Source of the DNA: an uncultured Gemmatimonadales bacterium
GTDB lineage: Bacteria > Gemmatimonadota > Gemmatimonadetes > Gemmatimonadales > GWC2-71-9
Assembly: GCA_963798915.1 (NCBI GenBank)
Contig: CAWCVB010000007.1
Span: forward strand, 96,001-160,000
Length of the DNA stretch: 64,000 nucleotides
Reading direction: 5' to 3'
The stretch's first letter is position 1. The number at the start of each line of letters is the position of its first letter. The notes beneath the pieces were generated by a model that was not told the DNA's origin, searched no databases, and saw only the letters and a list, made by a program, of their open reading frames with translations. Positions 14,737 to 55,678 of the stretch are shown one piece after another. Made by a program: the position numbers and the translations under genes.

Positions 14737-14829
14737 TTCGCCCTACAGTGTGAAGTCGTAGTAGCGAGATTCTCGCCTGTACCACGGCACGATCTCCGCT
14801 ACCGAGAGCCCGTTCGAGTGTGCCGCCCT

Positions 14830-16044
<1,215 letters not shown>

Positions 16045-16058
16045 CTTTCGAGACAGTT

Positions 16059-16191
16059 GCTAACGACCGGCGCTTCAGCGGCGGGGCGGTCACCCTCACA
16101 GCAACCAAAGTTCATTCTCGGCCAACCCGATGGCCGCAGCGCAGGGAATTCCGGCGGACGGCCGCCCGCCAGCTGCAAGCGCGGGTTAGCC
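16059..16191 (-). other. attC: attC site carrying the IS110 insertion in R'
   Basis: gctaac..gcgcttcagc / gctgcaagcgc..gttagcc. Confidence 0.88.
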
Positions 16192-20889: not shown

Positions 20890-20981
20890 CTGCGTTTGTG
20901 CGGAGCTGCTCACCTCCTCAACGCTGCTGAAGCCGAGCGGTACTGGAACGCTGAATACGCCTGATTTTCGAGACAGTTGCT
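20890..20981 (+). mobile_element. Relic IS110 transposase 3' end and right end, at a second attC R' core
   Basis: Degenerate ..WNAEYA* then TTTTCGAGACAGTTG-CT|AACGAC, matching 16024-16067. Confidence 0.85.
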
Positions 20982-21105
20982 AACGACAGGCAAATCAGCT
21001 GCAAACGACCTGCGAAAACATCAATTCCTTATAGCCTCTGGGAGCGTAGCACGCCAGCGGCGCCTCGGCCGGTCCGCGTTTGCCAGCTGCATTTGCGTGT
21101 TAGAC
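20979..21105 (-). other. attC: attC site
   Basis: gctaac..gcaaatcagctg / cagctgcatttgc..gttagac. Confidence 0.88.
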
Positions 21106-22911: not shown

Positions 22912-23047
22912 GGCGAACGACAAGCGCTTCAGCTGCGGGGCGGTCGCCCCGTCAGGAATCAAAGTTCAGTCTCGGCCAGACGGGACGCTAGTACCGCACG
23001 GAACCCCGGCCGACGGCCGCCCCGCCAGCTGCAAGCGCAGGTTAGAC
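22912..23047 (-). other. attC: attC site
   Basis: ggcgaac..gcgcttcagc / gctgcaagcgc..gttagac. Confidence 0.85.
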
Positions 23048-23581: not shown

Positions 23582-23856
23582 TCCGGGAAGACTGCAAAAC
23601 CTGACCGGCCCAACAAGTCCGCCGGGCTCCGTACCGCCAGCCCACCGCGGTTCAGGACATGGGTATAAAGCATGGTAGTGCTGACATCCCGGTGCCCCAG
23701 CAGTTCCTGCACCGTCCGGATGTCGTAGCCCGCCTCCAGCTGGTGGGTCGCGAAGCTGTGGCGGAAGGTGTGACAGCTTGCCCGCTTGCCAATGCCCGAG
23801 CGCCGCACTGCCTCCGCCCGCTGCACCGCACTCGGATGTAGATGATGCCGCCGCCT
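23578..23856 (-). pseudogene. intI: Integron integrase, C-terminal fragment
   Basis: [13 protein letters not shown] (IntI-specific insert), [41 protein letters not shown]. Confidence 0.92.
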
Positions 23857-23888
23857 TCTTCGGCTGCAAACGCAGATCAGGCGGCGCG

Positions 23889-24593
23889 TTAGTTCTCTTC
23901 AAGCGCCTCTAAAACCGCCCGGGTTGAACAAACGCGTCCAAATACCATGGCGAACGTCTCCAGCGCCGATCGGTGTCGATCGTCGCCTGGAGCGGCACAG
24001 CTGTCTGCAAGAATGATGACGCTGAAGCCGCCATCGGCCAATTCGCGGGCTGCCTGAGTAACGCAAACGTCCGTGGTCACGCCGACAACGAGCACAGTGT
24101 CTACGCCAAGCACGTGGAGCGTTTGATCCAGCCGGGCAGAGTTCAGCGGTCCGCTGGTCGTCTTTGCCAGGACGGGTTCACCTTGCCGGGGAGCGAGGCT
24201 CGCGTGAATCCGCCAACTGTCGTCATCCCGCGGTGGGTACATTGGCGCACCAACCGTCTTCTGGCTCAATTGGTTGAGTTGCCGAGCCCAGCCGGGCAGA
24301 TCCCGCCCGTCACTGCGGAAGGAGCCGAGAGCCGTGAAGTAGATCGGGATTCCCAGTGTGCGACAAGACTTGAGCACTTCCTGGACATTTGGAACTACGG
24401 TAGTTCTGACACGGTCGAAATACGCAGCGGCTGCGTCAGGCTGAAACTTGGCTAGGACCTGGCCGAACGGGAACTCAGGTTCCACGAAATACCGCTGCAT
24501 GTCGACCACAAGCAGGGCGCTACGATCAGGCCGCACACGGAGGGTTTCCTCACCCTTGAGGGCGGCGTATGCTTCAAAGTCGCTGATGTCCAT
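23889..24593 (-). CDS. Isochorismatase-family cysteine hydrolase
   Basis: [17 protein letters not shown]; followed by half attC (R'' 23888-23894). Confidence 0.92.
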
Positions 24594-24633
24594 TCCGCAA
24601 TCCTCCCAGATGCAGAGCTCGTTGTTGCCGTCT

Positions 24634-24729
24634 GGTATCTCTGAATCTCACGTCCGCAGCACGTTCTGGATAGGCTGTTAACCCGTTGCGCCTCAGGCTT
24701 CCAGGCCGTTCGTTCGCTTGGACAGGCTA
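24634..24729 (+). mobile_element. Relic IS110 left end (bridge-RNA 5' half) at a third attC-type CT core
   Basis: GCCGT-CT|GGTATCTC...TTCTGGATAGG...AACCCGTTGCGCCT...CCGTTCGTT, homologous to 14917-15003; followed by half attC ending attagac (24783). Confidence 0.8.
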
Positions 24730-24886
24730 TGGTGCCCCAGCCGCAACTTCGCACGCAGAAGCGGCAGCAGGCGCGAATTAGACTGCGACGGGAACGCGGG
24801 GGTGCCGGCTCGGGACCCGGATGCTTGCCTCATCATCCAGTCTTCACTTCAACGGTCCGTCCGCAGGAACCGTTTTCTCGCAAACC

Positions 24887-25063
24887 CTAACGGATTCCCC
24901 CACCTCCGCACGGCAGGCCAATGCGCGCCGCCAAGCAGGCGGTGTCAGCCTGCTCGGCGTCAGCCCCAGCGGACGGTCGCTGGCGCCATACCGCGATCAG
25001 CAGCAATACCAACAGCAGAAGCGCCGCCGCCGAAAACACCACGCTGGTGAAACGCCGATGCAT
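24887..25063 (-). CDS. Small single-TM protein (58 aa)
   Basis: Manual translation MHRRFTSVVFSAAALLLLVLLLIAVWRQ...ACLAARIGLPC; GGAGG RBS. Confidence 0.55.
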   Translation of the reverse strand: MHRRFTSVVFSAAALLLLVLLLIAVWRQRPSAGADAEQADTACLAARIGLPCGGGGIR

Positions 25064-36771: not shown

Positions 36772-36787
36772 TGTTCCACGTGAAACA
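36772..36787. promoter_or_regulatory. parS: parS centromere site
   Basis: TGTTCCACGTGAAACA. Confidence 0.92.
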
Positions 36788-36828
36788 ATCTCACCCGCGC
36801 CAGATGCCGCCCGAGCCCCCCTGTAAGG

Positions 36829-37131
36829 GCGGCCTGCGGCCGCCCCATCGCGTCCCGATCCCTCACGTTCTCCCACGCGGCCTGCGGCCGCCCCATCGCG
36901 TCCCGATCCCTCACGTTCTCCCACGCGGCCTGCGGCCGCCCATGGCGTCCCGGTCCCTCACGTTCTCCTACGCGGCCTGCGGCCGCCCCATGGCATCCCG
37001 GTCCCTCACGTTCTCCCACGCGGCCTGCGGCCGCCCCACGGCGTCCCGATCCCTCACGTCCTCCCACGCGGCCTGCGGCCGCCCCATGGCGTCCCGGTCC
37101 CTCACGTTCTCCCACGCGGCCTGCGGCCGCC
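36829..37131. repeat. ~6 tandem copies of a 48-bp unit containing the palindrome GCGGCC-TGC-GGCCGC
   Basis: Unit cgccccatcgcgtcccgatccctcacgttctcccacgcggcctgcggc with few substitutions. Confidence 0.92.
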
Positions 37132-37285
37132 GAGGGCAGTTGGGCAAGATCCGGAACCGAGCGAGCGGCGGCAGGTCGCAGGGGGCAGATGGCAAGATCG
37201 GATTCGAGGGGGTGGCGGCATGCCACGGAACAAAGGCTTCGGGAGATCTTAACGCGAGGCAGTCGCCAACTCGCCAACTCGCCAA

Positions 37286-48705: not shown

Positions 48706-49279
48706 ATGACCATCCACCGCATCCGCCTCCTGGGCGACCCTATCCTCCGTGCCCTCTGCGAGCCCATCGAGAAGCCCTCGTCAGCCGCCATTCGGGTAAT
48801 TCTGGACGACATGCGCGAGACCCTGCGGGATTGGCAGAGCCGCTTTGGCAGCGGCCGGGCCATCGCAGCGCCCCAGATCGGGGCGCCAGTGCGGATGGTC
48901 TACGCCGAGATGGAAAAGCCCTGGGTGCTCATCAACCCCGAGATTGTGGACATTGGCAACGAGGACTTCAGCGTCTGGGACGACTGCTTCTCGTTTCCCA
49001 ATCTGCTGGTCCGGGTCTCACGTGCCTACCGGCTCCGGGTGCGCTACCAGGACCAGAAGGGTGCGTGGCATGAGGATGACCTGGAAGGGCGACCGGGCCG
49101 AGCTGGTGCAGCACGAACTCGACCACCTGGACGGCGTCCTGACCGTGGACCGGCCGCACGGCCTGGATCCCTTCTGTCTCAGGGAGGAATGGAACCGGCT
49201 CCACGCGGCAAGCGGGCGCTATGGTCCGCCGGAACCGCGAACCGGCATCTATGCGACGCCGTTGACAGGGCTGTTGTGA
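48706..49279 (+). CDS. def: Peptide deformylase-like protein, frameshift near 49088
   Basis: LGDPIL, IAAPQIG, INPEI, DDCFS, then QHELDHLDG in a shifted frame. Confidence 0.85.
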
Positions 49280-49368
49280 GGCGGCTGGACGGCTAGACGG
49301 CTAGACGGCTAGACGGCTGGACGGCAAGTTGCCCAGTTTCTGCTCCCAAACACCAGCTCGCTCGCCCA

Positions 49369-55525: not shown

Positions 55526-55678
55526 GGATGGAGCTTACGCTCCAGGCGGCCAGGCGGCTAGACGGTTGGACGGCTGGACGGCTGGATGGTTAGGTTCCAT
55601 CATCGTGCGCACCTGGCCGCCCGAGCGTCCGGCCGTCCGACGCTCTAGCCGTCTAACCATCCAGCCATCCAGCCGCCC

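Follow-up and report, generated by a model that had tools for sequence, protein, structure and literature searches.

The window, the stretch of 64 000 nucleotides analysed here, belongs to contig C7 of an uncultured Gemmatimonadales bacterium and carries sites of an integron cassette array, an intact insertion sequence at the end of one of these sites (attC 16059-16191) and, further to the right, a short relic of an insertion sequence beside a truncated intI gene (Table 1). The attC sites of integrons are imperfect palindromes with RYYYAAC and GTTRRRY ends, arrayed next to intI. All of the attC-profile matches of the contig lie on the plus strand, within approximately C7:64852-119047 (the latter corresponding to position 23047 of the window), and an array of about 20 such matches extends to the left of the relic on the same strand. 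The intI fragment, 0.8 kb away from the relic, is 71-87% identical to the IntI of relatives and, being incomplete, scores less than the 265-bit TIGR02249 cut-off. From the last full attC up to the relic, the minus strand carries a 145-codon open reading frame without a known family, the intI fragment and the isochorismatase-family gene, while genes of the glyoxalase and aldolase families follow on the plus strand to the right of the relic; none of these four neighbours (isochorismatase gene, 145-codon frame, glyoxalase and aldolase genes) was found near intI in the loci of 14 relatives. The relic is located upstream of the truncated intI, and no other attC-like piece of the locus lies farther to the right. 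An earlier note on this DNA had placed it at a cassette boundary, which is correct, although the site lies beyond the truncated intI and outside the main array.

The polarity of the array runs leftwards, on the minus strand, as judged from the intI fragment, from the open reading frames of the array, which are mostly on the intI strand, and from the layout in a relative (G406), in which the array is again found downstream of the intI 3' end and the opposite strand bears the same motif. Such a polarity makes the GTTAGRC end of each attC the target of the element; naming the attC end from bulge positions alone was dropped as unreliable. The broken end of intI meets a short decayed attC arm (23863-23886; score 48, compared with a control maximum of 46) at a shared GCCGCCGCC, which forms Arg codons and part of the attC arm on opposite strands (23602-23886), and the break looks like a microhomology-mediated deletion. 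Within the array, direct repeats at 7801-8333/10703-11234 and 3453-3954/18950-19493, with 99% and 79-91% identity, respectively, presumably represent duplicated cassettes. The window further contains a tandem array with a 48-nt period (36781-37185) and short 8-nt tandem arrays of the CGGCTAGA/CGGCTGGA type (49274-49348 and 55539-55605).

Table 1. Features of the intact element, the relic and the adjoining integron remnant (window coordinates).
Feature	Position	Strand	Remarks
Intact reference element	14828..16061	+	CT cores at 14828-14829 and 16060-16061
Recombinase gene, 310 aa	15112-16044	+	In the intact element
intI C-terminal fragment, ~80-88 codons	23602..23865	-	TIGR02249 positions 229-314, 125 bits
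Isochorismatase-family hydrolase gene	23889..24593	-	Pfam PF00857, E 2.3e-32; between intI fragment and relic
Left half of target and CT core (GCCGT-CT)	24627..24633	+	From the sequence; core CT at 24632-24633
Terminal donor half-site GGTATCTCT (family: TGTATCTCT) and 5' stem-loop region of the predicted bridge RNA	24634..24671	+	
Closing stem of the target-binding loop, 5' strand: GGCTGTTAACCC (intact copy GGGTGGTAACCC)	24673..24684	+	Model alignment
Left target guide (LTG) GTTGCGC-CT = GTTGCGCCT	24685..24693	+	9/9 identical to intact copy
Inner hairpin of the target-binding loop, GGCT-TCCA-GGCC (intact copy GGGC-CTCGA-GCCC)	24696..24707	+	
Right target guide (RTG) GTTCGTT-CG	24708..24716	+	7/7 guide bases identical; core-pairing AG changed to CG
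Closing stem, 3' strand (probable), G-GACAG-GC, after a 3-nt deletion	24720..24727	+	Model alignment
Surviving attC arm, degenerate core AATTAGAC at 24776-24783	24730..24783	+	Local alignments

The intact element is a member of the IS110 group, with an IS621/ISCro4-like DEDD recombinase and a long non-coding left end. Its left boundary reads ...GCCGCC-CT-TGTATCTCT... and its right boundary ...GACAGTTG-CT-AACGACC.... The recombinase contains the Pfam domains DEDD_Tnp_IS110 (PF01548) and Transposase_20 (PF02371) and is similar over its full length to those of ISCro4 (E 1.9e-42) and IS621 (E 1.2e-37). The non-coding sequence upstream of the gene measures 198 nt (285 nt when a tandem duplication is included), compared with approximately 17 nt between the stop codon and the right core, and the only inverted repeat visible at the ends is a short subterminal TCTC/GAGA.

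The stretch 24632-24727 is the decayed left-end stump of a bridge-RNA insertion sequence and, as such, genomic debris. It is approximately 77% identical to the left end of the IS110-family element at 14828-16061: in blastn, both tandem copies of that left end (14828-15022) were 76-78% identical to it over 91-110 nt (E ~1e-12 to 1e-13), and another intact copy, located on contig C2, was 77% identical. A covariance model trained on 22 left ends, from which the relic was excluded, gave it 60.2 bits (E 2.9e-13, span 24632-24735) and a sequence-only model 49.2 bits (span 24633-24722); across the 64-kb window the two models returned three matches: the relic and the tandemly repeated pair within the intact element. 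Neither blastn nor the model scan of the window revealed a remnant of a recombinase gene after the relic, which, having no such gene, is to be regarded as a fragment of an IS110-group member and not as a member. No Rfam family matched the window at gathering thresholds, the RNA being one without a curated family. In a DNA search of 401 genomes of the order, the best matches to the relic were 76-80% identical and all stopped at 24721, and none was closer to it than the resident element; two same-genus genomes that were searched gave no match.

The relic keeps the CT core, the donor half-site, the 5' hairpin region and the whole target-binding loop, and element-derived sequence ends at about 24727; the stump no longer has a donor-binding loop, a recombinase gene or a right end, and the attC has lost one of its arms. 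Compared with the intact copy, 10/11 positions are identical in the terminal 11 nt, 23/32 in the 5' hairpin region and 8/10 in the 5' strand of the closing stem. The inner hairpin retains its four pairs, with one double change from GC to CG and one change from CG to TG, and its loop is 1 nt shorter. The right guide is the reverse complement of CT+AACGAAC. On the left, 5/8 right-justified positions of the flank match the relic's own left guide, the right flank having been deleted. What survives of the interrupted attC is a single arm with the degenerate core AATTAGAC; approximately 24730-24783 matches the attC arm ending in GTTAG on the plus strand, with CGGCAGCAGGCGCGAATTAGAC aligning with CGGCAGCAAGCGCGGGTTAGAC-type arms, and local alignment to 11 attC sites of the array gave best scores of 33-35. 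This arm did not reach E 10 against the attC profile, being too short and too decayed. With AAC... placed after the left half of the target and the CT, the site in its empty state would be GCCGTCTAAC, with GTTAGAC on the other strand; every insertion of the family has ...G(C/T)-CT on the left and CT-AACG... on the right.

The identification agrees well with the earlier note, which had recognized a bridge-RNA relic here; both the similarity to the left end of the intact element (blastn ~78%) and the model alignment (60.2 bits, E 2.9e-13) bear out this reading and the left-end homology on which it was built. The letters that it quoted are found where it had placed them (GCCGT-CT at 24627-24633, GTTGCGCCT at 24685-24693 and GTTCGTT at 24708-24714), and the second of these is identical to 14968-14976 of the intact copy, as claimed, while GTTCGTT is kept. 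Its statement that the rest of the element and half of the attC are deleted also holds, as neither the donor-binding loop nor the gene nor the right end is present and one attC arm is missing, and the empty site that it proposed, GCCGTCTAAC with GTTAGAC on the other strand, is an attC end.

The RNA structure is established by the family alignment and not by the relic. A total of 80 loci with relatives of the element were fetched, mostly from Gemmatimonadales and Nitrospira genomes. RNAalifold applied to 22 upstream regions yielded two internal-loop domains comprising 32 pairs, 12 of which show compensatory changes. In the target loop, 97.2% of the cells of the family alignment are paired and 7/13 pairs have changed on both sides, a value that was reached in 0/500 shuffles; in slid controls, with the partners shifted by 1-3 columns, pairing fell to 31-50%. 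In the second loop, a putative donor loop, ACAGTTGC equals the right end ACAGTTG-C(T) and ..CGCAAG on the other side matches the left end CTTG.. only in part; the ends themselves hardly vary.

The two sides of the target loop correspond to the two flanks of the insertion site. The 5' side, (G)TTGCGC-CT, equals the top-strand left flank plus core, which is how the LTG is defined in the IS621 study (Durrant 2024), and the 3' side, GTTCGTT-AG, is the reverse complement of CT-AACGAAC; the bottom-strand match therefore precedes the top-strand match, which is the IS110 order. When the guides of 28 distinct insertions were compared with their own flanks, the left guide scored 82 against a permuted mean of 72 (p 0.009) and the right guide 140 against a permuted mean of 117 (p <0.0002), p values that are generous because loci from one genome are not independent. 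At L026, for instance, AGCTGCCT adjoins GGCTGCCT and CTAACGGAC adjoins CTAACGGAT, and at L021 and L022 CTAACGCAC adjoins CTAACGCCT. A reprogrammed subgroup (L003, L005 and L006) has the right guide GTACCCTAG and flanks reading CTAGGGT...; in these three and in L004, all of the same clade, GTACCCTAG replaces GTTCGTTAG and CTAGGGT.. stands in place of the attC-type CTAACGA....

The family inserts at attC ends, in a fixed position and orientation. In the 80 loci, 71 right ends were available, and 14 of them adjoin a full match to the attC profile, built from sites in the genome studied here, whose start coincides with the core and whose strand is that of the element; all 14 belong to the Gemmatimonadales clade. 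The other 57/71 are made up of Nitrospira-type relatives with different flanks, of the reprogrammed subgroup and of seven close-clade copies with flanks that went unrecognized by the profile.

The left end of the intact element is itself duplicated, exactly and in tandem, over 87 nt (14828-14914 and 14915-15001), so that two target-binding loops stand in a row. The junction of this duplication, ...GTTCGTTAGC-CT-TGTATC, falls at GC-CT just past the right guide, and the homology of the relic stops close to this point of the left end. Two relatives (L004:943-1002 and L005:943-1002) have a 60-nt partial duplication of the left end, which joins precisely at the CT within the left guide (...CCGTTCCGC-CT-TGTATC). 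The left-guide DNA mimics the left half of the target by definition, which suggests that the element may occasionally recombine with its own guide-coding DNA.

The relic is a fossil and does not represent a retained function. Position 3 of its left end has changed from T to G in a column that is invariant in 20 distinct close-clade rows, the core-pairing A of its right guide, likewise invariant in the close clade, has become C, and its lower stem has suffered a 3-nt deletion; it is these changes at otherwise invariant positions that mark it as dead. The guides are nevertheless well preserved, with 17/18 positions identical to the intact copy, compared with 51/71 of the other positions in 1-89 (one-sided Fisher p 0.035). 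The guides are thus nominally better conserved than their surroundings, against the alternative named in the earlier note, although the margin is not wide and other blocks, such as the terminal 11 nt and TTCTGGATAGG, are conserved equally well. Within the close clade the LTG occurs in nine variants and the RTG in five and, given this variation, the identity of both guides indicates that the relic and the resident element share a target programme.

Whether the relic is merely a decayed copy of the resident lineage or the remnant of one that had diverged beforehand depends on how its stems are read. Those singled out in the earlier note, CTGTT(AA)/(TT)GGACAG and GGC(T)/(G)GCC, are the same as those aligned by the model, in which six pairs are unchanged, one has changed on one side (CG to TG), three have changed on both sides (GC to CG, GC to TA and GC to CG) and three are lost to the 3-nt deletion. 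The covariation within the locus that the note had invoked is partly borne out, with 10/13 pairs kept and three double changes, but two of the three depend on the placement of a gap. Under neutral substitution from the intact sequence at 22.7% divergence, at least three double changes arise with a probability of 0.0027 (200 000 trials); moreover, in 58 distinct full-length rows the doubly changed pairs belong to the covarying set, whereas the relic has no change in pairs that are constant throughout the family. These three two-sided changes suggest that the inserted element came from a diverged lineage with the same attC-directed guides, and a lineage that diverged while still functional is, in our judgement, on balance the more probable source, on within-locus evidence that is suggestive and was selected post hoc. 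Plain decay of a resident copy, in which the compensatory changes would reflect chance and alignment freedom and the relic would tell nothing about the RNA structure or an older lineage, is unlikely, yet several observations speak for it. The relic differs from the clade at 10/45 invariant and 16/53 variable columns (Fisher p 0.49), a distribution that neutral decay would give, although 6 of these 10 invariant-column differences come from three pairs that have changed on both sides and can still form. The double change in the inner stem, anchored on both sides by identical guides, has by itself a P of 0.089, and the two in the outer stem need a 3-nt gap without a downstream anchor; since BLAST homology ends at 24721, the homology of 24722-24727 is read from pairing, and the 3' stem strand and these two double changes from the gapped model alignment, while 11-26% of random local 5-mers are fully complementary (5/5) to the 5' strand, the share varying with the number of registers allowed. 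The minimum-energy fold of the relic is a different structure that lacks the loop architecture, its stability not exceeding that of shuffled sequences (z +0.32); for the intact copy the architecture is recovered, but with a z-score that is also weak (-0.60), and thermodynamic folding is therefore not decisive for such open loops. Finally, no living element with the stem states of the relic was found in the 401 genomes of the order, in a metagenome pattern scan or among the 58 rows: the third double-change state (CG, inner stem) occurs in 0/58 distinct full-length rows, and the scan with the inner hairpin and loop frame of the relic, an exact pattern that can miss variants, returned 13 loci, all 13 of them unrelated coding sequence. 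The interpretation in the earlier note is accordingly right in kind and over-reads three base pairs.

Two further readings concern what the stump does and to which group it belongs. It might have been kept as a transcribed target-binding-loop RNA acting in trans on the resident recombinase, which it would titrate or redirect at attC sites, either as a decoy that damps insertion at attC or as a half-guide, and thus as a brake on, or modifier of, the invasion of the array by insertion sequences. Both of its guides are complete and match the resident element's exactly, Durrant (2024) describes the IS621 bridge RNA as able to act in trans, and left-end-only stumps recur, both in relatives (L095 and L090) and elsewhere on the contig (C7:74912-75021). 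This reading is nonetheless very improbable: no sigma-70-like promoter or terminator was found in 24450-24950, the right guide has a mutated core-pairing base and 3 nt are missing from the lower stem, the relic is unmatched in the two same-genus genomes, and the stumps in relatives are cut at different places, which looks like random deletion, their recurrence being further qualified by the use of a left-end query, which could find left-end stumps only. An assignment of the relic to the IS1111-attC group, in which the guide RNA lies downstream of the transposase gene, would account for a target of the same kind, as ISKpn4, ISPst6 and ISPa25 also insert at one attC end according to PMC11187229; it is scarcely credible, however, for an element whose long non-coding region is upstream, whose bottom-strand match comes first, as described for IS110, whose 310-aa recombinase matches those of IS621 and ISCro4 along the whole length and whose ends have only the short TCTC/GAGA subterminal repeat.

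Other pieces of the family were observed in the course of this comparison. The two stumps in relatives, L095:1477-1564 (G041:C11) and L090:1461-1561 (G345:C27), come from two other Gemmatimonadales genomes and have no recombinase gene; the cut falls within the inner hairpin in one and immediately past the left guide in the other, and in L095 the stump is followed by AACGAAC, the sequence paired by the right guide. On the contig but outside the window, the left-end stump at C7:74912-75021 is 82% identical to the intact copy, has the left guide GATCCGCCT and, as in the relic, TCG for TAG in the right guide; some 2 kb past it, C7:77060-77633 repeats the element's right half with 99% identity. Within the window, 20904-21002 is a decayed right-end relic of the same family, with 78.6% identity to the last ~100 nt, which abuts a weak attC match (20979-21105) and probably stems from another old insertion, which was truncated from the opposite side.

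Taken together, the relic is very probably a non-functional stump of an IS110-group element from a family whose bridge RNA directs insertion, in one orientation, into the attC end. The 5' non-coding region of the family would encode this bridge RNA, in which the left guide (..GC-CT) is predicted to pair with the bottom strand to the left of the CT core and the right guide (GTTCGTT-AG) with the top strand to the right of the core (CT-AACGAAC); pairing of the guides would then direct the element, in a single orientation, to one end of the attC sites of the host integron. By analogy with IS621, the RNA and the recombinase may be expected to behave as they do in that element. An element of this family is likely to have once inserted at GCCGT-CT-AAC... 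of an attC adjoining the integron, after which a deletion would have removed everything from just past the target-binding loop through the donor-binding loop, the gene and the right end to the adjoining attC arm, and the remnant would have drifted since.

The lasting value of the locus lies less in the relic than in the family that it exposed, which is IS621-like, with an upstream bridge RNA and an attC-end programme in Gemmatimonadales. If this description is correct, targeting of attC by bridge RNAs would be either convergent or long kept, one clade would offer a case of natural reprogramming, with attC-type and CTAGGGT-type targets, and the family would provide a comparative set for the minimal natural guide bases, about ..GC-CT-AACGA. 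For integron biology, it would add a further type of element that erodes cassette arrays, in an environmental phylum.

Among the known systems, IS621 and ISCro4, of the IS110 group and with solved structures (8wt6 and 9t56), are closest, with recombinases homologous along their entire length to the one in this family. The resemblance extends to a left-end non-coding RNA upstream of the gene, to its 5' hairpin, target-binding loop and donor-binding loop and to the CT core, as well as to an LTG made up of the top-strand left flank plus CT and an RTG reverse-complementary to CT and the right flank. Unlike IS621 and ISCro4, however, which have REP-like or other chromosomal targets, the present family has an integron attC end as its natural target and its host belongs to the phylum Gemmatimonadota; the relic, in addition, is only the first ~96 nt, half of the RNA, of a dead copy. 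Another mobile lineage specialized on attC (PMC3001079), the group IIC-attC introns, relies on a retrohoming ribozyme and a reverse transcriptase and has no relation in sequence or structure to this element.

In the literature searched, which covered few papers from subscription journals, no description of an IS110-type attC-targeting family was found, and attC targeting has previously been documented there only for the IS1111 sister group. PMC11187229 describes ISKpn4, ISPst6 and ISPa25 as IS1111-type elements that are site- and orientation-specific at one attC end, and the IS1111-attC group (with ISPa21) thus shares its target with the present family. The long non-coding region lies upstream in the IS110 type and downstream in the IS1111 type, as stated in PMC11187229 and PMC11208160; the guide (seek) RNA of IS1111-attC elements is correspondingly described as downstream of the transposase gene, whereas that of this family is upstream, and the order of strand matches given for IS1111, with the top-strand match 5' of the bottom-strand match, is the reverse of that found here. 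The ends of IS1111-attC elements also have longer subterminal inverted repeats than the short TCTC/GAGA of this family. Decayed footprints of IS1111-attC elements in cassette arrays were reportedly noted by Tetu and Holmes in 2008. A left-end stump of an IS1111-attC element would be without a guide, whereas the stump described here carries the target-binding loop.
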